Assembly: GCA_965207065.1 (NCBI GenBank)
Contig: OZ242260.1
Location: forward strand, 2,272,001-2,336,000
Length of the DNA stretch: 64,000 bases
Direction: 5' to 3'
Source: a bacterium
GTDB taxonomy: Bacteria; UBA8248
Below, piece after piece: positions 12,558-47,287 of the stretch (positions are counted from its first letter, which is position 1; every line of letters starts with the position of its first letter). A program made the position numbers and the translations under genes. The notes below the pieces were generated by a model that saw only the letters and a list, made by a program, of their open reading frames with translations, searched no databases and was not told the origin of the DNA.

Positions 12558-13106
12558 ATGCGCATCGTCGTGCGCGGAACCCGCGAGGGCAGGCTCTGGA
12601 ACGAGTTCGTCGCCCGCTACCACTACCTCGGCTACAAGACCCTCGTCGGCGCCCAGATGCGCTACGCCGTACATGACCGGGGCGGCAGGCCCCTCGCCAT
12701 GCTCGGCTTCTCCACCGCCGCGTGGAAACTCGCCCCGCGCGATGCCTTCATCGGCTGGACGCCGCAGTTGCGCGAGAAGAACCTTCCCCTCGTGGTCGAC
12801 AACCCGAGGTTCCTCATCCTGCCCTGGGTCAAAATCCCCAACCTCGGCTCGCATCTCCTCGCCATCATCCGCCGGCGACTGCCCGGCGACTGGACCGAAC
12901 GCTACAATACCACCCCCGTCCTCATCGAGACCTTCGTCGAGACGCCACGCTACACCGGCGCCGTCTACAGGGCATCGGGATGGATTCACGTCGGAACCAC
13001 ACAGGGACGCGGACGCTACGACAGATACAAACGCTTCGACAAGCCCAGAAAGGACGTCTGGCTCCGCCCGCTCCGCAATAACTGGAAGCAGGTCCTCAAC
13101 CGCTGA
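12558..13106 (+). pseudogene. DUF4338 (DruA-like) protein, C-terminal portion
   Basis: YHYLGY, N.RFLILPW, ETFVE...TG..YRASGW...TTQGRGR; matches the C-terminal part of 17488-18315. Confidence 0.85.
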
Positions 13107-13752
13107 AACAACTCCCATCACCCTGTCGCCGAACGTTTATTGCGCCAGGCTAAGCCCTGGAGAGGAGGACGCCATGACCTGAAACCTCTCGTAGCGACCC
13201 AGCGGGTTCGACTCCCGCCCGGCAAAGGCGAAGCCGGCCAGCCGGAAGCGAGTCTTGCATGGCGTGCGGCAACGCCCGTCGTGAAGCGTAGACAGCAGGT
13301 GATGAAGCGGCGGGGTAAGCCTCGAAATCGGTCAATCGACGACGCCTTCATTGTTAATCGTGTGGGGGCAGCACCGGGAGCGCCGCCAATGGCGAGGCGC
13401 AACGGGTCGTCCGGGGTCGTGGGCCGGCGCAAAGTCACGGGACGGGTCGCCAGGGAACCTGGGAGATCCTGCTCTTGCCCGTGGGAAAGAACGCTGGAAA
13501 GGGGACGGCCAGCGTGAACAATCCAGACCCCGGCCCGTCGCCGGACCTGCACGGCGGCGGGAGCGCCCCAGGGCGGACACGAACCCGGCAGGCGCCCGCG
13601 GAACCGGCTGGCGAAAACAATAAGCCGAAGGACATGCGAGGGCAGGAAGTCGTAGCGCCCTGATAGTACCGCTGAAGGCGGGGAACCGTGGCCATCGGGA
13701 CCCGCTGGAGGGAAGCGGGGCGTCATCTGTACAGAACCACTGATGGGAAACG

Positions 13753-14420
13753 ATGGAGGAAACTCTGAGTTCCACCAACACGTACACGAAACAGCAGTGG
13801 ATAGCCGAACAGGCGAGGGAGCATCCGGAGCGGGTGTTCACGTCCCTGCACCACCTCATCGACGGCGAGTGGATGCGCGAAGCGTATCGCCGCACGCGCA
13901 AGGATGGGGCGAGGGGTATCGACGGCGTGAGCGCCGCCGACTACGAGAAGGACCTGGAGGTGAATCTTGACGACCTCCTGAGCCGGATGAAGTCGGGTCG
14001 ATACTTTGCGCCGCCGGTGCGTCGGCACTACATCCCGAAGGCGGACGGCACGAAACGACCGCTCGGCATTCCGACGTTCGAAGACAAGGTGGCGCAGCGG
14101 GCAATCCTGATGCTGCTGGAGCCGATTTACGAGACGGACTTCCTGACGTGCTCGTACGGCTTCCGGCCCGGACGGTCGGCTCACGATGCCCTGGGCGCAC
14201 TTCGCACGGGCATCATCGAGCAGCGCCAACGGTGGGTGATTGACGCCGATATCTCGAAGAACTTCGACTCGATATCGCACACCCACCTGCGGTCAATCCT
14301 CGACCTGCGGATTAAGGACGGCGTCGTAAGGCGCATGATTGACAAATGGCTGAAAGCGGGGGTGCTCGAAGAGGGAGCCGTGCACAGGCCGGTCACCGGC
14401 ACTCCCCAAGGCGGGGTAAT
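13753..14420 (+). CDS. ltrA: Group II intron RT/maturase, N-terminal half
   Basis: FTSLHHLID, YIPKADG..RPLGIP, SYGFRPGRSAHDA, DADI..FD and GTPQGGV. Confidence 0.92.
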
Positions 14421-14490
14421 GACACCCCGAACGCAAAAGGCAACTTCCAGTTTGAGCGCCAGATTGTGGCGTGGCGGGATCGTTCGTTAC

Positions 14491-14519
14491 TTGATTATCG
14501 TCGCAAGAGGTAATATCAT
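14491..14519 (+). promoter_or_regulatory. Putative sigma70 promoter of the recombinase element
   Basis: TTGATT-17 bp-TATCAT, 8 bp before the ATG at 14528 (leaderless-like). Confidence 0.45.
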
Positions 14520-14527
14520 TATGACAA

Positions 14528-14848
14528 ATGACGCGTTCAACGAAGTCCCAGAAAGCCGAGCGGATCAACGCAGCCTACACGCTGCTCGCGCAGGGCGTCA
14601 CGGCGAACGAGGCTGTAGCGCTGCTATCGCAGCGTTTCGGCGTATCGAAGCGGCAGTCCTACCGCTACGTTCAGCAGGCGGTAGCCATGGACCGGCCGGC
14701 AGAGCCGGTCGAATCCCGGATTCCCATCACCATCAAGATTCCGGGCGTGTTGGCGCAAGCCCTGCGTACGCACGCCAGAAGCAGCGGCCAGGCCATCGGG
14801 GACATCGTTGCACGGGCCCTGAGACGCTTTCTCCCGGATGTGGATTGA
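14528..14848 (+). CDS. HTH plus ribbon-helix-helix DNA-binding protein
   Basis: LSQRFGVSKRQSYRYV (HTH-like); ITIKIP...IGDIVARALRRFL (RHH-like). Confidence 0.65.
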   Translation: MTRSTKSQKAERINAAYTLLAQGVTANEAVALLSQRFGVSKRQSYRYVQQAVAMDRPAEPVESRIPITIKIPGVLAQALRTHARSSGQAIGDIVARALRRFLPDVD

Positions 14849-14849
14849 A

Positions 14850-15146
14850 ATGGCTGCGCGTCGCCCGGGTTCGCGGCCCGGCGTTGAACTTGATTATCGT
14901 TTCGATCGCCTGTTCGCAGCCAGGCTCCAGAATGCCTACGAGATACTGGTTCCTGATCAGGCCCACAAAATCCCTGCCCGAAGACATGACACAGGAGACG
15001 AGGATGAAAGTCGCAGCCCTTTATGCGCGAGTCTCGGGCGAGCAGCAGAGGGAGAGCAACACGATCGCCAGCCAGACCGAGGCGCTGGTCGAATACGCCA
15101 GGAACCACGGCTACAGCGTCGCGCCGGAGATGCTCGTCGAGGATGA
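14850..15146 (+). CDS. Small ORF overlapping the recombinase start; candidate directionality factor
   Basis: Starts immediately after the HTH-RHH stop; LDYRFDRLFAARLQNAYEILVP. Confidence 0.4.
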   Translation: MAARRPGSRPGVELDYRFDRLFAARLQNAYEILVPDQAHKIPARRHDTGDEDESRSPLCASLGRAAEGEQHDRQPDRGAGRIRQEPRLQRRAGDARRG

Positions 15147-16701
15147 CGGCTACAGCGGCGCTGTTCTCGAGCGTCCGGGGCTGGAGCGGATCAGGGACCT
15201 CGCCGCGGAAGGGCGCTTCGATACATTGGTGGTTCATGCCCCGGACCGTTTGAGCCGCCGCTACGCCCACCAGATGCTGATCATCGAGGAGATGGCCCGC
15301 CAGGGCGTTGAGACCGTGTTCGTGAACGCGCCGTCGATGGAAACCCCGGAAGACAACCTCCTCGTCCAGTTCCAGGGCATGATCGCGGAATACGAGCGCG
15401 CACAGATCCTGGAGCGTTCGCGTCGCGGCAAGCGTCATCGGGCGCAGCGTGGTGAAGTTGCGGTTCTCGGAGGCGCGCCTTATGGCTACCGCTACCACAA
15501 GAAAACCTTCGAGAGCGATGCCTATTATGAAGTGCTCGAACCTCAGGCGTCGGTGGTTCGCGAAGTCTATCACTACTATACTCATGACCACATGAGCATT
15601 GGCGAGATCACCCGCAAGCTCAACGAGCGGGCGGTGCCCACGTCCTCCGGTCGCGGACGCTGGGAGCGTTCGGCCGTGTGGGCGATGCTGCGCAACCCGG
15701 CGTACAAGGGCAAGGCGTGTTTCGGCAAGACCCGCCAGATGCCGCGAAAAATCGTGACCCGTCCCTTGCGATTGCGCGGCGGTGTGGCCGGCGCCACCAC
15801 CGGCGGTCACGAGAAACCGCGTGAGGAATGGATCGAGATTCCGGTGCCGGCGATCGTCAGCGAGGAAACCTTCGCCCTGGCCGAAGAGCGGCTGGAGATG
15901 AACTAGGCCCGCGGGCCGCGCCGAACAAAGACGCCCAGCGTGGTGCAGGGGCTGGTCTCATGCGCCAAATGCGGCTATTCCCTGTATCGCACATCGACCC
16001 GGACGAGCGCCCGCACGATTTACTATTATCGCTGCCTGGGGCCCGATGCATGGCGGCATCTCAACGGGCCGGTATGCGACAATCGGCCGGTGCGCCAGGA
16101 TCTGCTTGACGAAGTTGTCTGGAGCGAAGTCGTCCGCCTTCTCGAGGATCCGAATCTGATCGGCGCCGAGATCGAGCGTCGGCTGGAGGCGGCCCGCGAC
16201 TCCGACCCCAGTCGGCAGCGCGAGACCGACTTGCGGCGCCGGTTGATCAGGGGACGAAAGAGTATCGACCGCCTGGTCAATGCCTATCAGGAGGAGCTGA
16301 TCACCATCGACGAACTGCGCGAGAGAACGCCCGAACTACGTCGTCAGGAACAGGCCCTTCATCGTGAGCTGCAGTCCGTTGTCGACCAGGTCAAGGATCG
16401 GGAAACCTACCTCCGGCTCGCCGACACGCTGACCGGGTTCCTGGCGCGGCTTCGCCCTCCGCCCGGACTCTGGGTGCCATCGAGCAACAGCTCCTTGTCC
16501 GTCTCCTCGTCAAGGAGGTATTGGTCAGTGAGGAGAAGATCACCATTCGCCATTCCATCCCGATCCCGGGGACGTCCCGTGGCAGTCCGGCCCCGTCCGA
16601 ACCCGACGACGGAGGCGAAAAGCAAAGTTACCTTTTGCGTTCGGGGTGTCATCTCGCCAATGCTTTCCAACATCTTCCTGCACCACGTGCTGGATAAGTG
16701 G
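15004..16701 (+). pseudogene. Large serine recombinase (resolvase, recombinase, Zn-ribbon, coiled coil) with in-frame TAG at 15904 and frameshift near 16457
   Basis: YARVS, DDGYSG..LERPGL, PDRLSRR, APYGY, LRNPAYKG and CAKCG...YYRC; the typical C-terminus LVRLLVKEVLV..ITIRHSIP..SYLLRSG continues in another frame. Confidence 0.9.
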
Positions 16702-17325
16702 TTCGAGGAAGAGGCGAGGCCGCGCTTGCGCGGAAACTGCCAGTTGGTGCGATTCGCCGACGACTTTGTCGTCGCCCTGGAAGACCGCCACAGCGGCAAG
16801 CGATTGCTTGACGTGCTGGGCAAACGTCTCGGCCGATACGGACTCACGCTCCATGAGACCAAGACGCGCTATGTGGACTTCCGCCGGAGGCGTCCCTACG
16901 GGCGTCACTGGATGGCGTCGGCCACGACGTTCGACTTCCTCGGCTTCACCCACGTCTGGGGGCGGTCGATGCAAGGCAAGGACGTCGTCCGCCAAATCAC
17001 GGCGAAAGGCCGCTTCGCCCGCGCGCTGAAATCGGTGCACGAATGGTGCAAGAGAAACCGGCACCTGCCGGTCAAGGCGCAGCATGACTATCTCGTCCGG
17101 GCGATACGAAGCCACTGCGCATATTACGGTCTGAGGGGGAACGGCAAACGTCTTCGGTGGTTCCGCTACCAGGTGGCTCGCACGTGGCGGAAGTGGCTTG
17201 CGCGCCGCAACCGCCTGCGTCGCATGAACCGGGACTGGATGAACGCGCTCCTCATGCGATACCCTCTTCCATATGTCTCTTACGCGCGCTCACGGCAAAG
17301 CTTCCTGAGCGAACCTGTCAGGTGA
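16653..17325 (+). CDS. ltrA: Group II intron RT/maturase, C-terminal half
   Basis: SPMLSNIFLHHVLD, VRFADD, LHETKT, FDFLGFTH and the X/thumb domain. Confidence 0.92.
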
Positions 17326-17487
17326 GGAACCGAGTGCGTCAATCGCGCACGCTCGGGTCTGTGGGGGGCGGGGCGCAGAAATGCCCCCGCCTACCCGGCC
17401 AATGCTCCGTAACCGTTCGGCGACAGGGTGATGGGAGTTGTTTCAGCGATTGAGGACTTGCTTCCAGTTGTTCCGGAGGGGACGTAG

Positions 17488-18315
17488 TCAGACATCCTTT
17501 TTGGGTTTGTCGTGGCGTTTGTACCTGTCGTATCGTCCGCGTCCCTGTGTGGTTCCGACGTGAATCCATCCTGAAGCCCTGTAGACGGCGCCGGTGTAGC
17601 GCGGCGTCTCGACGAAGGTCTCGATGAGGACGGGGGTGGTATTGTAGCGTTCGGTCCAGTCGTCGGGCAGGCGCCGGCGGATGATGGCGAGGAGATGCGA
17701 GCCGAGGTTGGGGATCTTGATCCATGGCAGGATGAGGAACCTCGGGTTGTCGACCACGAGGGGAAGGTTCTTCTCGCGCAACTGCGGCGTCCAGCCGATG
17801 AAGGCATCGCGCGGGGCGAGCTTCCACGCGGCGGTGGAGAAGCCGAGCATGGCGAGGGGCCTGCCGCCCCGGTCATGTACGGCGTAGCGCATCTGGGCGC
17901 CGACGAGGGTCTTGTAGCCGAGGTAGTGGTAGCGTGCGACGAACTCGTTCCAGAGCCTGCCCTCGCGGGTTCCGCGCACGACGATGCGCATCCCGAGGGG
18001 ACGGACCTCGTCGAGGGTCTCGGGCGCCGGGATGAGAGGCGCTTCGGTGTCTGGCCCGAAGACGATCGGCCGGGCCGGGTGCCGCGGGCGCTTCGGCGGG
18101 GGAAGCGTGATCAGGCCGTCTCTGTGCATGGCGAGCATGGTCACCCGGGCCATCATGTCCTTGAGTCCGCCGTCGGGCTTGAACCAGCCGATGCGCCGGC
18201 AGAACTCCTTGGAGAGCACGTTGCGATTGAGCGCGGGAGGGCCGGCGATCAGTTCGCGCAGCAGCGCCATCTCTTCCGTCGTGAAGTCGCGTCCGTAGTA
18301 GCGGCACTCGATCAC
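17488..18315 (-). CDS. DUF4338 (DruA-like) protein; premature TGA 15 codons before the copy-1 stop
   Basis: RYYGRDF, C....WFKPDG.LKDM, YHYLGY; KDV* here vs KDVWLRPLRNNWKQVLNR in copy 1. Confidence 0.85.
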   Translation of the reverse strand: MIECRYYGRDFTTEEMALLRELIAGPPALNRNVLSKEFCRRIGWFKPDGGLKDMMARVTMLAMHRDGLITLPPPKRPRHPARPIVFGPDTEAPLIPAPETLDEVRPLGMRIVVRGTREGRLWNEFVARYHYLGYKTLVGAQMRYAVHDRGGRPLAMLGFSTAAWKLAPRDAFIGWTPQLREKNLPLVVDNPRFLILPWIKIPNLGSHLLAIIRRRLPDDWTERYNTTPVLIETFVETPRYTGAVYRASGWIHVGTTQGRGRYDRYKRHDKPKKDV

Positions 18316-18319
18316 GGCG

Positions 18320-20632
18320 TCATCCCGGCGCCGTGAGGGCGCGCCTGCGCTCGGCGCTCATCGACCAGGGCAGCCACGCGGAGAGGTCCCCGGGCGCCCG
18401 GCCGCCGATCTGCGCGCAGGCGGTGAGCCATGCATCGAGCCAGCGGAGCGGGTCGATGCCGTTCGAGGAGAGTGTGCCGAGGACCGAGTACATCATTGCC
18501 GTGAACCCGGCGCCGGCCTCGCTGTCGGAGCCGAACGAGAGCCGCCTCCCGATCACGGGACCCCTGAGCACGCGTTCGATGGCGTTATTATCTGTCGGCA
18601 CCCAGGGGCGCTCGAGGAAGACGCTCAGCCCCTCGCGGTGGTTCAGCAGCGAGCGAAGCGCCTTGCCCTCGCGCGCCTGCGCTGGCAGGGCGGCCAGTTC
18701 GCGTCGGGCCTGCGCGAACAGGCCCTCGAGCGCCTTCTTCAATTCGTCGTGCGCCGCGTCGAACGCCGCGTCCTGGTGTTCGAGACCTGAGTCGTAACGG
18801 GCCAGGCGCGCCTCGTTCAGGCGGTAGAGCAAGGCGATCCGCTCGATCCACCTCTCGCACCACGGCGTCAGGCGCGCCTCGCCGGCCGCGCAGTCGATAA
18901 TGGTTCTTCTTTGGTGTACCCAACATGATGCGAGAGTGACCAGACCCCCGAGTTCGCGCGCCAGCTTCTTGTAGGCGCTGTAGCGGTCGCAGACGAGGAC
19001 CGTATGGCGGCCGGCCGCGCCGAAGAGCTTCATCGCGACCTCCGCACTCCGCGAGGGGTCGACGTGGAAGTAGACGGAGTCTGCGCTTAACGAGGCCCAC
19101 AGCCAGGCGCGGCTCGAGCGCCCCTGCTCGCGAAGCGACTGTATCCGCCAGGTCGTCTCGTCCCCGTGGCGCAGCGCAGACTCGTTCTGGCGGGCGAGGA
19201 TAGCCCCGGCCAGCGGCTCGAACAGGGGCGTGAACCGGTGCGCGCTGTCGCCCAGCGTCCCCGCCGAGACGGCAAGCCCCTGGTCGGAGAGCCACGCGGC
19301 GACCCGGCGCAGCGGGCGGAAGCAGGCGTAGCGCTCGAACAGGAAGCGCGCCCATACGCTCGTCCCGAAGGACGTGCCCGCGAACAGGCGCGGCGCGGGC
19401 GGCGCCGACACCTCCATGGGAGACGATGCGCATTCGCACCCCCGGCGCCACCTCGGACGGCGGATGACGCGCTTGTGGGCCGAGACCTCGATCTCGACGA
19501 GGCTCGATACACGCGCGCCGTTGGCCACGTAGGGCTGCCCGCAACAGGCGCAGACGCGCGCACCGGGCGGCGGGTTGCGAACTTCCGTCCTCGCCTCGAG
19601 CGCGGGACGAGGGGTGCGGCCATGGCCCCGGGCGCCGGGCTGCCCGCCGCGCCTGCGCTCCGAGCGTGGCTTCTCCTGCCGCTCGCTCTTGCGCCCGAAC
19701 AGCCTCCTCGCCAGCACCGCTCCCGTGGCGCGAAGCTTCGCGAGTTCGGCCTCCAGCCGCGCACGGCGGGCTTCCGACTTGCGTAGCGCACGGCGCAACC
19801 GCGCGTTCTCCCTGGTCAGGGACCCGAGCGCCGTCTTCTGGCGCCGCGACCTCCCCAGGGCCTTGCGAAGCGCCTCGTCCGAACGAGGCGTCCTCGAGCG
19901 CGCCGCCTCCTTCGCGCGCAACAGCCGCTCCTTCAGCCCCTCCTTCACTCTGGCTGCGGCCCTGAGAGAGACCCGCAAATCGTCGCGCGATTCCCGTAAC
20001 TTCCCGTAGAGCCGGATAAGCTCCTCTTCACGATACCCGATGGTCTTCTTGTGATCCGCCGTCTCCAGCTTCTCCCAGGCCAGCCGATCCTCCAGCCGGG
20101 CGACATCCTTCTCCCGCCCCTCAAGCTCCTCGCGAAGAGACTCTATCGTCTTCTCCTGCTTCTCCACGACCCGGCGCAGCCGCGCGGCCTCCTTCGGTGG
20201 CAAAGCGCCCGAGAGGGCCTTGTTCAACCGGGCCACATCCTTGCGCAGCGACTCGAGCGGGCTGCGCTCCCCCGGCTCGACTCCCGCTTCCGCGAGCAGC
20301 TTCTCCAGCCGCGCCACTTCCGCCTTGAGCGACAGCGCGTCCTTCGCCGCGCGGCGGGCTTCCTTCGCCTCCCCGGCTACCTCCTCAAGCTTCCTCCGGC
20401 TCTTGTCGAGACACCACTTCAGCGAACCCGCCCGCGCGCGCGAATCCACTTCCGCCCACCGCAACTCCTCGCAGCGCGCCTCCGCCGCCTCCGCGCGCGC
20501 ACGCGCGCGCTCGTACAGCGAACGCCAGTACGCCTCTGCTGTTGCGGGCAACCCGGGAGAATGAGGACATGGGGCATCCGGCCTCTCGACCAACGCCGGC
20601 TTCGTCTCGACAGCTTCCGTGCAAATCTTCAT
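18320..20632 (-). CDS. tnpC: IS66-family DDE transposase with long N-terminal coiled coil
   Basis: LFGRKSE, CACCG, HGDET, CDRYSAY, CWVH.RR, PTDNNAIER.LR and terminal WLPW. Confidence 0.92.
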   Translation of the reverse strand: MKICTEAVETKPALVERPDAPCPHSPGLPATAEAYWRSLYERARARAEAAEARCEELRWAEVDSRARAGSLKWCLDKSRRKLEEVAGEAKEARRAAKDALSLKAEVARLEKLLAEAGVEPGERSPLESLRKDVARLNKALSGALPPKEAARLRRVVEKQEKTIESLREELEGREKDVARLEDRLAWEKLETADHKKTIGYREEELIRLYGKLRESRDDLRVSLRAAARVKEGLKERLLRAKEAARSRTPRSDEALRKALGRSRRQKTALGSLTRENARLRRALRKSEARRARLEAELAKLRATGAVLARRLFGRKSERQEKPRSERRRGGQPGARGHGRTPRPALEARTEVRNPPPGARVCACCGQPYVANGARVSSLVEIEVSAHKRVIRRPRWRRGCECASSPMEVSAPPAPRLFAGTSFGTSVWARFLFERYACFRPLRRVAAWLSDQGLAVSAGTLGDSAHRFTPLFEPLAGAILARQNESALRHGDETTWRIQSLREQGRSSRAWLWASLSADSVYFHVDPSRSAEVAMKLFGAAGRHTVLVCDRYSAYKKLARELGGLVTLASCWVHQRRTIIDCAAGEARLTPWCERWIERIALLYRLNEARLARYDSGLEHQDAAFDAAHDELKKALEGLFAQARRELAALPAQAREGKALRSLLNHREGLSVFLERPWVPTDNNAIERVLRGPVIGRRLSFGSDSEAGAGFTAMMYSVLGTLSSNGIDPLRWLDAWLTACAQIGGRAPGDLSAWLPWSMSAERRRALTAPG

Positions 20633-20739
20633 GCCGACATGATTACCACATGCCGAAAAGTGTTACCAGAGCTTCAGGGAAATCTCTTCGATTATCCGGG
20701 ATGAGAAAAGCGGGCCATCACCCTGTCGCCGAACGGTTA

Positions 20740-21548
20740 TTGCGCCAGGCTAAGCCCTGGAGAGGAGGATGCCATGACCTGAAACCTCTCGTAGCGACCC
20801 AGAGGGTTCGACTCCCGCCCGGCAAAGGCGAAGCCGGCCAGCCGGAAGCGAGTCTTGCATGGCGTGCGGCAACGCCCGTCGTGAAGCGTAGACAGCAGGT
20901 GATGAAGCGGCGGGGTAAGCCTCGAAATCGGTCAATCGACGACGCCTTCATTGTTAATCGTGTGGGGGCAGCACCGGGAGCGCCGCCAATGGCGAGGCGC
21001 AACGGGTCGTCCGGGGTCGTGGGCCGGCGCAAAGTCACGGGACGGGTCGCCAGGGAACCTGGGAGATCCTGCTCTTGCCCGTGGGCAAGAACGCTGGAAA
21101 GGGGACGGCCAGCGTGAACAATCCAGACCCCGGCCCGTCGCCGGACCTGCACGGCGGCGGGAGCGCCCCAGGGCGGACACGAACCCGGCAGGCGCCCGCG
21201 GAACCGGCTGGCCAAAACAATAAGCCGAAGGACATGCGAGGGTAGGAAGTCGTAGCGCCCTGATAGTACCGCTGAAGGCGGGGAACCGTGGCCATCGGGA
21301 CCCGCTGGAGGGAAGCGGGGCGTCATCTGTACAGAACCACTGATGGGAAACGATGGAGGAAACTCTGAGTTCCACCAACACGTACACGAAACAGCAGTGG
21401 ATAGCCGAACAGGCGAGGAATGCCTCGACCTGCGGACCAAGGGTGACAACCCCTTGAGCGAACCTGTCAGGTGAGGAACCGAGTGCGTCAATCGCGCACG
21501 CTCGGGTCTGCGGGGGGAGGGGCGCAGCAATGCCCCCTCCTACCCGGC
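20740..21548 (+). mobile_element. ORF-less group II intron (809 nt), deletion derivative of 13140-17399
   Basis: 20740-21418 is near-identical to 13140-13818; joined near 21455 to intact domains V and VI ending CTACCCGGC. Confidence 0.9.
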
Positions 21549-21962
21549 CAATGCTCCGGCGACAACGACCCCCCGGGATACGCAGGCATTGTAACGAATC
21601 CGCTTGCGGGTTGATTACGGGTCGTGGAGGGTGGATTTCGAAGATTCAGTTAAAGATAATACTATCAATATATTAGATAGATATGTGTCTAATCTAACCG
21701 GATGGATGCACCTAATTTATCGAATAACCCCGTGAATTTATCTATATTTACGGAAATGATTATTTGCATTTCGCATGTTCCCCGCTTCGACTGATCGACG
21801 GCCCGGCTCCTGCGATCCGCGCCCCTTCCACCCCCTGAAAAAAGAAAGCCGACGGGCTGTCTCCCGAGCATACCCCATCCCCCCGGAAATTCCGTAACGG
21901 CGAATGCGGGCACATGCGCGCGCCGAACGCGACCTGTTCGGGACGAGGAGGAAGAGAACCAA

Positions 21963-36125: not shown

Positions 36126-36541
36126 TGTAATCAAATCGCGAACGTACCACGTTAATCCGGAGCGAATTCCAGCATTAGCATGACGGAAAGGCAAGCGGAA
36201 AACAGACAGGAAAAAACGCATTTATGTGGGATTAACATGAATTTGTATACGGAAGCGCCATTGTCGTAAGGATGGATCATGAACCATGTATCTCCCTTCT
36301 CAGTCGGAACTGACTTCATCAGTCGCGTCAATCGCTCCTTTATTAATCATGAAATCCTCCCTGGTTTTTTTCACCACAGGAAGTGAAGTTATAAATATCT
36401 GTACTTATATCGATTATATCATTTATTGTTCATTCTTGGGCCATGCAAGAAATGCACATTTCAAAGCTTGTAATCAAAACGAAAGCGGACTCATTACAAC
36501 CCCCGCGAATCCATTCGAACGAATGTCGATCAAAATCGGCG

Positions 36542-37331
36542 GCCGGGTAGGCGGGGTCGTTGTCGAGCCCCGCCCCCCACAGACCCGAGCGTGCGCGATT
36601 TACGCACTCGGTTCCTCACCTGACAGGTTCGCTCAAGAAGCTCGAATGCTTCCTCGCCTGTTCGGCTATCCACTGATGTTTCGTGTACGTGTTTGTGGAA
36701 CTCAGGGTTTCCTCCAACGTTTCCCATCAGTGGCTCTGTACAGATGACGCCCCGCTTCCCTCCAGCGGGTCCCGGTGGCCACGGTTCCCCGCCTTCAGCG
36801 GTACTATCAAGGCGCTACGACTTCCTGCCCTCGCAACTCCTTCGGCTTATTGTTTTCGCCAGCCGGTTCCGCGGGCGCCTGCCGGGTTCGTGTCCGCCCT
36901 GGGGCGCTCCCGCCGCCGTGCAGGTCCGGCGTCGGGCCGGGGTCTGGATTGTTCACGCCGGTCGTCCCCTTTCCAGCGTTCTTGCCCACGGGCAAGAGCA
37001 GGATCTCCCAGGTTCCCTGGCGACCCATCCCCGTAACTTTGCGCCGGTCCACGACCCCGGACGACCCGTTGCCCCTCGCCAATAGCGGCGCTTCCGGTGC
37101 TGCCCCCACACGATTAACAATGAGTGCGTCGTCGATTCACCGATTTCGAGGCTTACCCCGCCGCTTCATCACCTGCTGTCTTCGCTTCACGACGCGCGTT
37201 GCCGCACGCCACGTAAGACTCGCTTCCGGCTGGCCGGCTTCGCCTTTGCCGGGCGGGAGTCGAACCCGCTGCGTCACTACGAGAGGTTTCAGGTCATGGC
37301 GTCCTCCTCTCCAGGGCTTAGCCTGGCGCAA
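36542..37331 (-). mobile_element. ORF-less group II intron (790 nt), diverged copy of the 13140 family
   Basis: Minus strand TTGCGCCAGG...CTACCCGGC; same EBS1; RT removed at a junction different from copy 2. Confidence 0.9.
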
Positions 37332-37780
37332 TATCCGTTCATCCGGGCCGTGATGGAGGCCGGCTTAAGCTGTTGAGAGTTCGTTTCCAGTTTTTCCTGA
37401 GGGAATGGAGCCGGATATCCTTTTCCGGTTGTGCGCGCCTCGTGTATCTGTCTTAGCGTCCACGTCCCTGTGTGGTTCCGACGTGAATCCATCCCGATGC
37501 CCTGTAGACGGCGCCGGTGTAGCGGGACGTCTCGACGAAGGTCTCGATGAGGACGGGGGTCGTGCCATAGCGTTCGGTCCAGTCTCCGGGCAGGCGTCTG
37601 CGGATGATGGCGAGGAGGTGCGAGCCGAGGTTGGGGATTTTGATCCATGGCAGGATGAGGAACCTCGGGTGGTCGTCCACGAGGAGGAGGCTCTTTTCGC
37701 GCAACTTGGGTATCCAGCCGATGAAGCTGTCGCGCGGGGTGAGCTTCCACGCAGCGTTGCTGTAACCGAGCATGGCGGGG
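37332..37780 (-). mobile_element. Right-end remnant of a related IS66 (DUF4338 3' part plus IR)
   Basis: RFLILPWIKIPNLGSH...TTQGRGR; minus-strand IR ccatcacggcccggatgaacggata abuts the intron; terminal C at 36541. Confidence 0.8.
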
Positions 37781-45358: not shown

Positions 45359-47287
45359 GTGCGCCAGGCTAACTGGTGCCAGTGCAGCCGGTGAAAGTCC
45401 GGCGGGAAGGAGAAGGTGAGCCACCACTTCCACCCCGAGTCATGGGCCTACGCTCGCGAGGGCGGGGGTCAAGCGTTGACAGGGGCGCGTGCGGGTAGGG
45501 CTAATGAGCACCGAAAAAGCGCATTTCCGGGATGCCGAGGCCGTCCATCTGGCCGAAGGCAGCATTCGACCCACCGACATGGCGAGGGGGGCCGGAATCC
45601 CGCGGTGTCTAAGAACCCATACACGTACGTACGCACTGCACCGGGACCTGGGAGGTCTCCATGTCACCCCGCTGTCGTGGCGGGGTCGCTGACGAAAGGA
45701 GGAGTCCGTAACCGATGATGAACGGCATGGAGAAGTCAGACTCGGCCATAGTAGCCGTGAAGTCGGCGAACAAAGGGGCGGCAGCCCCGGCGGAGCCGAT
45801 GGAGCCAAGGGCCGAGCTCGAGGGGAATCCGGAGGGCCAAAGCACGTACCGGACGCAGGACCGGGAAAGCGTGTCACAAGCGGCCGACCGGATACGGCAG
45901 TTTGTACAAAGGGAACCTGGGATGCGTCTCACGACGCTCCTCCACCATATCACGGTCGATGCGCTGCGCTGGGCCTTCTTCGAGATGAAGAGGGACGCGG
46001 CGGCAGGCGCGGACGGCGTGACATGGCGGATGTACGAGGAAGGGCTGGGAAGCCGTCTGGCCGACCTGCACGACCGCGTGCACTCGGGGGCGTTCCGGGC
46101 GACGCCGTCACGGCGGGTGAATATCCCGAAGCCGGATGGCGGGACACGACCGCTCGGCGTCGCAGCCATCGAGGACAAGATAGTCCAGAAGGCGGTGATG
46201 GAGATAATCCTGACGCCGATTTACGAGGCGGAGTTCCTGGGGTTCAGCTACGGGTTCCGGCCCGGGCGTGGAGCGCACGACGCGCTCGATGCGCTCGCGG
46301 TCGGCATCGACCGGCGCAAGATCAACTGGGTGGTCGATTGTGACATCCGCGCATTTTTCGACACGGTTTCGAGGGACTGGCTGGTCCGGTTTCTGGAGCA
46401 CCGCATCGGAGACAAGCGGGTTATCAGGCTGATCATCAAGTGGTTGAACGCCGGCGTCATGGAAGATGGAGAGTGGCGGGACGACTTGCGGGGGACGCCT
46501 CAAGGCTCGGTGATTTCGCCGAGTCTCGCAAACGTCTACCTGCACTATGTCCTCGATCTCTGGTTCCATAAGAAGTGGCGCAGCCGCGAAGCCAACGGCG
46601 AGTCGATCATCGTACGATATGCTGACGATTTCGTGGTGGGTTTTCAGCACAAGCGGGACGCGGAGCGCTTTCTGGACGCCGTGAAGGAGCGGTTCGGACG
46701 CTTCGATCTGGAACTACATCCCGACAAGACCCGGCTCATCGAGTTCGGGCGTTTTGCCAAAGAGAACCGACAACAGAGCGGTCAAGGCAAACCGGAGACC
46801 TTCGACTTTCTGGGCTTCACGCACTACTGCGCGAAGACCAGAGGAGGGCACTTCCAGTTGGGGCGCAAGCCAGTTGCGAAGCGGACGACGCGCACACTGA
46901 AGCGGATCAAGGAGGTGCTGCACAGGCGGATGCACGACAACATCAGGGATACGGCCAAGTGGCTGGGTAAAGTGGTCGATGGATGGCTGAATTACTATGC
47001 AGTCCCGGCCAGCTACCGGCACCTGTACCGCTTCCTCTTTCGCCTGAAGCGGGTGTGGCTCGACATAATACGCCGCAGATCGCAAAAGGACCGGTTCGCC
47101 TGGGCCAGCATCCACAGGCTAATTGCGCGATACTGGCCCAAGCTGGAAATCCGACATCCGTGGCCGGATCAACGATTTGCCGTCAATGCCTAAGCGGGGG
47201 CAAAACCCGAGGGAGGAGCCGGATGCCTTAGCGGGCACGTCCGGATCTGAGCGGGGGGCGCCGGGTAACCGGCGTCCCTACCGCAAT
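45359..47287 (+). mobile_element. Intact group II intron (class E-like)
   Basis: 5' GTGCG; EBS1 CCATCT (45545-45550) pairs with IBS1 AGGTGG; domain V GAGCCGGATGCC...CACGTCCGGATC; 3' CTACCGCAAT. Confidence 0.92.
45715..47193 (+). CDS. ltrA: Group II intron RT/maturase, no endonuclease domain
   Basis: GTPQGSVISP, YADD, LHPDKT and FDFLGFTH. Confidence 0.95.
   Translation: MMNGMEKSDSAIVAVKSANKGAAAPAEPMEPRAELEGNPEGQSTYRTQDRESVSQAADRIRQFVQREPGMRLTTLLHHITVDALRWAFFEMKRDAAAGADGVTWRMYEEGLGSRLADLHDRVHSGAFRATPSRRVNIPKPDGGTRPLGVAAIEDKIVQKAVMEIILTPIYEAEFLGFSYGFRPGRGAHDALDALAVGIDRRKINWVVDCDIRAFFDTVSRDWLVRFLEHRIGDKRVIRLIIKWLNAGVMEDGEWRDDLRGTPQGSVISPSLANVYLHYVLDLWFHKKWRSREANGESIIVRYADDFVVGFQHKRDAERFLDAVKERFGRFDLELHPDKTRLIEFGRFAKENRQQSGQGKPETFDFLGFTHYCAKTRGGHFQLGRKPVAKRTTRTLKRIKEVLHRRMHDNIRDTAKWLGKVVDGWLNYYAVPASYRHLYRFLFRLKRVWLDIIRRRSQKDRFAWASIHRLIARYWPKLEIRHPWPDQRFAVNA

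Follow-up and report, generated by a model that had tools for sequence, protein, structure and literature searches.

The window analysed here is a stretch of 64,000 nucleotides (C1:2272001-2336000) of a single-contig 4.48-Mb bacterial genome. It contains a group II intron whose reverse transcriptase (RT) gene is split by an inserted element carrying a gene for a large serine recombinase. The features of the locus, in window coordinates and with open reading frames abbreviated as ORFs, are:

13148..17402, + strand: host group II intron, with the RT ORF in domain IV; ends approximate, from BLAST similarity to paralogous copies in the genome
13753..14418, + strand: N-terminal RT half, ending ...GTPQGGV (Pfam RVT_1 profile 1-124, E 1.6e-16)
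14419..14420, no strand: left AT dinucleotide, the first two bases of the RT Ile codon ATC; putative crossover core
14421..16650, + strand: inserted serine-recombinase element, 2230 bp, AT dinucleotides not counted
14421..14446, + strand: left terminal inverted repeat, putative P' arm of attP, 25/26 complementary to 16625-16650
14421..14513, + strand: putative last 30 recombinase codons plus TAA, in frame only across the circle junction
14491..14519, + strand: promoter-like site upstream of ORF1, TTGATT-17-TATCAT, by consensus match only
14528..14848, + strand: ORF1, 106 amino acids, small predicted DNA-binding protein with a ribbon-helix-helix C-terminal half
14850..15146, + strand: ORF2, ~70-100 amino acids, its 3' part overlapping the recombinase start in another frame
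15004..16650, + strand: large serine recombinase gene, recognised by its Pfam domains and, from its lesions, a pseudogene in the window copy
16625..16650, + strand: right terminal inverted repeat, putative P arm, also coding for recombinase residues ...SYLLRSGC
16651..16652, no strand: right AT dinucleotide, junction sequence
16651..17325, + strand: C-terminal RT half, beginning ISPMLSNIFLH... (Pfam RVT_1 profile 125-204, E 6.3e-13)

The left junction reads ...CAAGGCGGGGTA-AT-GACACCCCGAACGCAAAAGGCAACTT and the right junction AAGTTACCTTTTGCGTTCGGGGTGTC-AT-CTCGCCAATG. The element termini are 26-nucleotide (nt) inverted repeats matching at 25 out of 26 positions, and the core of the left repeat, ACGCAAAAGG, is kept throughout the element family. 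When the two ends were joined in silico, they formed a 54-bp palindrome with one mismatched pair, while the in silico removal of 2232 bp produced ...GTPQGGVISPMLSN... and an open RT frame of 446 codons. The AT-flanked junctions, the palindrome with its single mismatch and the deletion restoring a 446-amino-acid RT had all been proposed in an earlier, sequence-only reading of this DNA, and each was reproduced here. In addition, Pfam placed the break exactly between positions 124 and 125 of the RVT_1 profile. With a G+C content of 0.624, the element does not stand out from the intron (0.639) or the window (0.623).

The interrupted gene belongs to a group II intron, with ribozyme domains around the RT ORF and RVT_1 matches on both of its halves. 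The Rfam model group-II-D1D4-6 (RF02005) matched at 13209-13426 with 123.6 bits (threshold 49), and the domain V/VI model Intron_gpII (RF00029) matched at 17325-17399 with 35.3 bits, slightly below its threshold of 40. A paralogous intron, 96-98% identical, is located at C1:1476271-1478360. It has an intact RT with the uninterrupted site ...GGCGGGGTAATCTCGCC... and is a natural empty target site (attB) for the element.

The largest gene of the element encodes a protein with an N-terminal serine catalytic domain, followed by a Recombinase domain and a zinc ribbon, the arrangement of large serine recombinases. The corresponding Pfam matches were Resolvase (residues 4-151, E 1.8e-35), Recombinase (PF07508, 6.5e-20) and Zn_ribbon_recom (PF13408, 1.2e-10), besides which just one weak ALIX match was obtained. 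Among 31 aligned family members, S11, R9 and other residues are invariant, as are four cysteines (C320, C323, C344 and C358). None of the named NCBIfam equivalogs was reached (CcrB, 101.7 against 900; XisF, 97.4 against 375; CcrC, 77.1 against 900). DUF4368, a trait of the TnpX/TndX clade, was not found by Pfam in the recombinase. Membership in IS607 was not indicated either, the catalytic domain being N-terminal and NF033518 (transpos_IS607) scoring 38 bits against a cut-off of 110. In the window, the gene contains a TAG at 15904-15906, where the second genomic copy and relatives have AAG, and has lost 1 nt after 16455 and, in frame, 3 nt near 16615. The first two of these lesions bear out the breakage of the recombinase implied by the sequence-only reading, and judging from them this copy is dead.

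Two small ORFs precede the recombinase gene, and the promoter-like site upstream of ORF1 is the only one within 14380-16700. ORF1 is present in nearly all copies of the family, at element positions 108-437, and measures 109 amino acids in most relatives, in which RHH_1 was matched with 21.4 bits (cut-off 20.5); RefSeq labels it as CopG family. Its codon-position entropies (0.99/0.70/1.49) are of the coding type, and it is a candidate regulator or directionality factor. ORF2 starts at element position 430 or 433 in nearly all copies. It had no Pfam or NCBIfam match, and its unique part shows a third-position excess of entropy (0.92/0.97/1.53 by codon position); like ORF1, it may have an accessory role. 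The codon-phase variability of both ORFs backs the three-gene content previously proposed for the element.

A second copy of the element, 98% identical, lies at C1:1493319-1495137. It ends after element position 1823 and has a frameshift of its own. Its left flank, ...GGTTCGGTGAA-AT-, is not RT sequence; read on the other strand, it gives ATTTCACCGAAC, only weakly similar to the target's 'ISP' side. With this recombinase as the query, the source genome yielded no intact copy. Both genomic copies are broken, and the element in the window is best regarded as a fossil that inactivated the RT of one intron. We searched 60 other genomes, including 22 of the same genus, and retrieved the recombinase (E <= 1e-40) in two of them, G011 and G012, both congeneric. 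In these genomes, the recombinase is 96% identical at the amino-acid level and its frame is intact; the element, 93% identical at the DNA level, occupies the same RT position in the opposite orientation relative to the RT.

A search of 5.8 billion proteins retrieved thousands of recombinase homologues. The best 120 are 62-95% identical and range from 469 to 829 amino acids, a length spread that suggested ORFs running out into differing flanks. A survey of genome_contigs, containing one genome per species, yielded 587 relatives, and the best 80 (60-81% identity) were analysed. Their hosts include Binatia, Alpha- and Gammaproteobacteria, Acidobacteriota, Gemmatimonadota, Spirochaetia, Verrucomicrobiota and others, with Nitrococcus, Sinorhizobium, Bradyrhizobium and Rhizobium among the cultured ones, and several genomes contain more than one copy. 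Cultured strains in which intact copies were seen are Nitrococcus mobilis Nb-231, Sinorhizobium psoraleae CCBAU 65732, Bradyrhizobium erythrophlei GAS478 and Mesorhizobium sp. AR02. The element ends were located by the conserved motif AC[GA][CT]AAAAG[GAC], found 10 nt inside each end. At least one flank was readable at 78 out of 80 loci, and an RT half abuts the junction at 70 of these 78. The RT is present on both sides at 53 loci, on the only readable side at 15, and on just one side at 2. The tabulation of homologue flanks had been proposed beforehand as a test of RT targeting, and its outcome is in favour. Chance insertion in an RT was rejected by the same result. As an independent check, Pfam RVT_1 (E <= 1e-3) matched 59 out of 62 C-side pieces and 40 out of 57 N-side pieces.

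Without exception, the RT is interrupted at the first two bases of the codon preceding Ser-Pro. In RT sense, the target consensus is ..GG.ACgCCgCAaGGcGGgGTg-[NN]-CTCgCCg.TGCTggCcAAC, covering ~20 nt per side, and the median half-site scores are 23 and 20 bits, compared with a background 99.9th percentile below 3. Relative to the RT, the element is in sense orientation at 28 loci and antisense at 21, while 3 loci are flanked by C-halves (C/C) and 2 by N-halves (N/N). Group II intron RNA matches at Rfam thresholds were obtained in 14 out of 15 full-length loci checked. They belong to five D1-D4 families (D1D4-2, -3, -4, -6 and -7), indicating that several structural classes of intron are targeted. 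Insertion has thus recurred at one motif, in unrelated RTs, in many phyla and in both orientations. RefSeq annotation of a Mesorhizobium sp. AR02 plasmid displays the same arrangement, with the genes in the order reverse transcriptase domain, ribbon-helix-helix CopG, recombinase and group II intron maturase-specific domain. A more distant Streptomyces relative, 50% identical, has the same inverted-repeat design and adjoins a maturase fragment in RefSeq, and a Nitrobacter recombinase, 43% identical, has no annotated RT nearby in RefSeq. The limit of the RT-targeting clade seems to lie between 43% and 50% identity.

A distribution of this kind could also have arisen from one ancient insertion in an RT followed by co-descent, with the intron and its passenger spreading by retrohoming, the RT being supplied in trans and no targeting involved. 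The composite intron is indeed present in three congeneric genomes, many RT halves are stop-free to the limit of the scan (40 out of 62 N-side and 51 out of 63 C-side flanks), and ORF-less derivatives of the host intron suggest mobilisation in trans. We compared the recombinases with 100 amino acids of RT per side at 30 loci with clean recombinases (435 pairs). The median pairwise identity was 66% for the recombinases and 36.5% for the RTs, and the RT identity was lower than that of the recombinase in 430 out of 435 pairs; the two were not positively correlated (Spearman -0.125). In fact, 100%-identical recombinases were found in RTs only 25-36% identical (L040/L042, L042/L049 and L070/L073), which indicates repeated targeted insertion instead of co-descent. 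The same pairs exclude a single ancestral insertion and led us to reject a spread by homologous recombination between RT genes. Moreover, the hosts represent five Rfam intron structure families, both orientations occur, and the source genome retains a paralogue with an empty site. Co-descent as the main process is strongly opposed by this incongruence and is very unlikely, although local hitch-hiking may occur.

Targeting is not absolute, since 8 out of 78 loci (L026, L041, L048, L053, L061, L063, L078 and L089) lack an RT flank. Among ten non-RT copies scored with the RT-derived matrix (nine loci and the second copy of the source genome), five (L041, L048, L053, L063 and L078) have one half-site above the background 99.9th percentile, and these look like pseudo-sites. 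Off-target insertions in ordinary genes were also seen: P0011 and P0025 read in frame into a DUF5655 (PF18899) protein. One N-side flank matches a xanthine/uracil permease, and one N-side piece matched recombinase domains. Such insertions, together with the second copy of the source genome and the variable central dinucleotide described below, are what would be expected of a TnpX/TndX-type transposon with a loose preference, which hits RTs because a short motif is common there and introns are multi-copy. The resemblance of the target to the element's own joined ends (GTG-AT-C.C.CC) and the multi-copy genomes with rearranged C/C and N/N loci would fit such a transposon as well. We nevertheless consider it improbable, given that 70 out of 78 loci are hit at one codon position of one protein motif, with the long, high-scoring consensus given above. 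The recombinase also lacks DUF4368, and the element ends are not the GA of that group.

The recombinase gene appears to continue beyond the right end of the element. In 73 out of 77 copies, the frame is uninterrupted, with no recombinase stop before the right end (the exceptions being the window copy, L032, L033 and L089), and most family copies accordingly look active. In the absence of an internal stop, the integrated ORF ends in flank-encoded sequence of arbitrary length. With the right end placed next to the left end across the dinucleotide, as on a circle, the recombinase frame runs for 29-31 codons to a TAA in 64 out of 66 distinct left ends, and in most copies the two alternative frames are soon closed. 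The predicted tail peptide is conserved (...H-DALNAKGNFxFER.I.GWR....LDLRRKR*), and its length differences are whole codons. In the part of the tail outside the inverted repeat (element nt 27-90), the variability by codon position is 0.93/0.70/1.34, a pattern of the coding type. In the Streptomyces relative, 35 codons are open across the joint and the first third of the tail is the same. On this indirect evidence, integration appears to split the recombinase gene, and the full-length enzyme would be encoded only on the circle. An ad hoc sorting of the tails of the 120 homologues by regular expressions was not relied on; it classed 52 as antisense-like, 39 as sense-like and 18 as other, while 6 were too short and the end motif was missing from 5. 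In one homologue, P0087, the C-terminal ~150 residues, coiled-coil region to ...YLLRSGS, are duplicated in tandem, which suggests a partial tandem or nested element copy.

These data are best explained as a whole by a decayed ~2.2-kb, three-gene large serine recombinase element with an RT motif as attB, a palindromic attP and a split recombinase gene, a reading that we regard as highly probable. The comparison with other genomes also supports the overall view taken in the sequence-only reading, that of a minimal serine-recombinase element with an RT motif as attB. Group II intron RTs contain the conserved stretch ...G(T)PQGG(V)-[I/V/L]-SP(L)L(A/S)N..., known as RT block 4, or motif B, and its coding DNA serves the family as attachment site. 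The excised form would be a circle, on which the 26-bp ends around a 2-nt centre form a palindromic attP. As expected from the enzyme family, the recombinase would pair attP with the RT motif, cut both at the central dinucleotide and swap strands. The near symmetry of attP, whose centre is often the self-complementary AT, would account for insertion in either orientation. The reverse reaction would restore the RT exactly. The recombinase gene would be completed, on the circle only, by the 30 codons located at the opposite end of the element, and integration would swap the C-terminus of the enzyme for flank-encoded sequence, with a possible effect on its function.

Several observations weigh against this explanation. 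The surveyed loci are the best-scoring 80 out of 587 and not a random sample, and the HMMs behind the per-locus RT calls had been built from the very same flanks. In the Pfam check, 17 out of 57 N-side pieces were missed, 13 of these 17 being shorter than 70 amino acids. As mentioned, non-RT sites are occupied at 8 out of 78 loci and by the second copy of the source genome. The conservation of the recombinase tail overlaps in part with the inverted repeat and the promoter-like site, and a circle-type C-terminus was present in none of the best 120 database homologues. The joined ends, searched as an IUPAC pattern, or a tandem copy had no matches in 105 loci and the source genome, and none in viral_contigs. 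Finally, the dinucleotide differs between the two junctions in 22 out of 52 loci (e.g. AT/GT or AT/CT), and on a plasmid of Streptomyces sp. NBC_00271 (L104 2402-4662) the junctions are GT on the left and AC on the right. This GT...AC is an inverted pair, not a direct one, and is not predicted by a simple 2-nt core model.

The junction dinucleotide is AT in about half of the cases, with GT, CT, GC, TT and others also found, and it tracks the Ile/Val/Leu/Ala codon of the host RT. A strict 2-bp core, as put forward in the sequence-only reading, agrees with the AT on both sides in the window and with the identical dinucleotides at 30 out of 52 loci, but not with the remaining 22. AT/GT mixtures were found in both orders and both orientations. 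Strand exchange may tolerate a mismatch, with replication then segregating the heteroduplex, which would give exactly such junctions. Alternatively, element copies in different RTs may recombine with one another, and recombination of this kind certainly takes place: one Pseudomonadales assembly has a single RT N-half linked via the element to different C-halves (L034-L037). Element copies appear to mediate rearrangements, and the C/C (L038, L051 and L098) and N/N loci (L071 and L086) would be expected after inversion between oppositely oriented copies.

The excised form was looked for as well. The empty site predicted by the sequence-only reading exists in the paralogous intron, but the circle junction was not recovered from the contigs searched; no circle-type joint was listed in the assembled contigs of public runs, which cannot show rare forms. 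Contigs bridging 14417/14418 to 16651 were present in runs X1 and X6, with near-variants in X3 and X11. These uninterrupted RT sequences were rejected as evidence of excision, given that the genome has an uninterrupted paralogue. In X11, one 'opposite strands' joint (14446/16617) was observed, for which the inverted repeats or the opposite orientation may account.

Since precise excision would rebuild the RT ORF, and most interrupted RT halves are still open, the element might be viewed as a domesticated switch serving the host or the intron, in which reversible excision controls RT retromobility, as in skin/sigK. However, it is multi-copy, occurs across phyla in unrelated RTs and is often rearranged, and the copies of the source genome are dead, which makes the on/off switching suggested in the sequence-only reading impossible for the broken copy of the window. 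No conserved host context was seen. An element that is multi-copy, scattered, rearranged and free of conserved context has the pattern of a selfish element, and a domesticated switch is the least credible of the alternatives considered, being extremely unlikely. The large serine recombinase element looks instead like a parasite of another mobile element.

We propose tentatively, and with rather less than even confidence, that it represents a hyperparasitic bacterial family with a self-splitting recombinase gene, in which the full-length enzyme made only from the circle drives integration and a mismatched central dinucleotide is tolerated. If so, a conserved basic tail of ~30 amino acids would be swapped upon integration, changing or silencing the enzyme and thereby determining directionality or copy number with no classical switch involved. 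With mismatch tolerance, nearly every group II intron RT would be open to one and the same element, in either orientation, and the AT/GT mixed junctions would be explained as unrepaired heteroduplex segregated by replication.

Additional features of the host intron and its surroundings are:

12558-13106 (+), 17488-18315 (-) and 18320-20632 (-): DruA-like and IS66 surroundings of the intron
20715-21558 (+) and 36541-37340 (-): ORF-less intron derivatives in the window
C1:28152-28947, 1524928-1525743 and 2259617-2260463: ORF-less intron derivatives elsewhere in the genome

The intron lies between two inverted DruA-like gene copies (Pfam PF14236), one of them truncated and one adjoining an IS66-family transposase gene, and it is immediately bordered by a 39-nt inverted repeat (13101-13139 / 17410-17448). 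In G011 and G012, the composite intron also abuts an IS66 element, in differing arrangements. The genome contains at least five ORF-less derivatives of the intron, each of ~800 nt and 95-99% identical to the full intron. They consist of the 5' 670 nt fused to the last ~100 nt, with the RT ORF gone (window position 13818 joined to 17306), and the identical ORF-deletion joint was found in contigs of public runs X1, X3 and X6. These derivatives look like miniature introns mobilised in trans. Two more RT-like stretches, 69% identical to the intron RT, were detected in the window (46123-46317, +) and at C1:915009-915203; they imply other group II intron lineages in the genome.

The family is widespread and apparently undescribed, consisting of minimal serine-recombinase elements that home to the PQGG-x-SP block of RTs. 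Full-text literature searches yielded no account of group II intron RT genes occupied by serine-recombinase elements, nor of any serine recombinase whose integration splits its own gene. The main text of the Durrant preprint contains no mention of 'reverse transcriptase' or 'intron', and its supplementary target-domain histogram may list RVT_1. An element of this type is a mobile element living on a mobile element, and its target is kept almost invariant in every group II intron by constraint at the protein level. Such a target provides a landing site in most bacterial phyla, as well as a vehicle that itself moves between genomes. The RT is inactivated at the DNA level, in principle reversibly, which may shape the intron load of genomes. 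The insertion also explains a recurrent annotation artefact, namely split 'reverse transcriptase domain' and 'maturase-specific domain' genes around CopG and recombinase genes. As a compact natural integrase system with a ~40-bp target, many natural variants and apparently relaxed dinucleotide rules, it is of interest for mechanism and tools.

Large serine recombinases of the phiC31/Bxb1 type serve phages and integrative elements. The element shares with them the order of Resolvase, Recombinase and zinc ribbon with a long coiled-coil region, attP-like inverted half-sites around a 2-nt centre with no target duplication beyond the dinucleotide, and small accessory genes, possibly including a directionality factor. 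It differs in measuring 2.2 kb without cargo and in having as attB the protein-motif DNA of a mobile element, in many variants. Both orientations occur here, the dinucleotide is not fixed, and the recombinase ORF crosses the attachment site. The TnpX/TndX transposons Tn4451 and Tn5397 are 6-21 kb long, carry resistance cargo and have GA ends. In common with them, the element has a large serine recombinase as its sole mobility enzyme, a circle as the presumed intermediate, a target resembling the joined ends and more than one target per genome. Unlike these transposons, the family lacks cargo and DUF4368, its dinucleotides are not GA, and its RT target is long and specific. In the Durrant preprint, DUF4368 is reported in 63% of the multi-targeting clade.

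In skin/SpoIVCA, SprA and fdxN/XisF, as in the window, excision would reassemble a coding gene that has been split precisely. Those elements are single-copy, large and developmentally regulated and reside in host genes, whereas the element described here splits a retroelement gene, is multi-copy and has been widely transferred. IS607 elements are also small and moved by a serine recombinase; they differ in having the DNA-binding domain first, no terminal inverted repeats and little target specificity. The split recombinase gene, if real, has a parallel in the SSV-type archaeal tyrosine integrases, in which the recombination site lies inside the integrase ORF and integration splits the gene (PMC7253208). 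These are tyrosine enzymes from archaeal viruses and plasmids, with tRNA genes as targets. Here, in contrast, the enzyme is a bacterial serine recombinase, and only its last ~30 codons are separated, with all recognised domains still encoded. A gene straddling its own attachment site, as described for archaeal tyrosine integrases, may be represented here for the first time among serine recombinases, as far as the literature searched shows.

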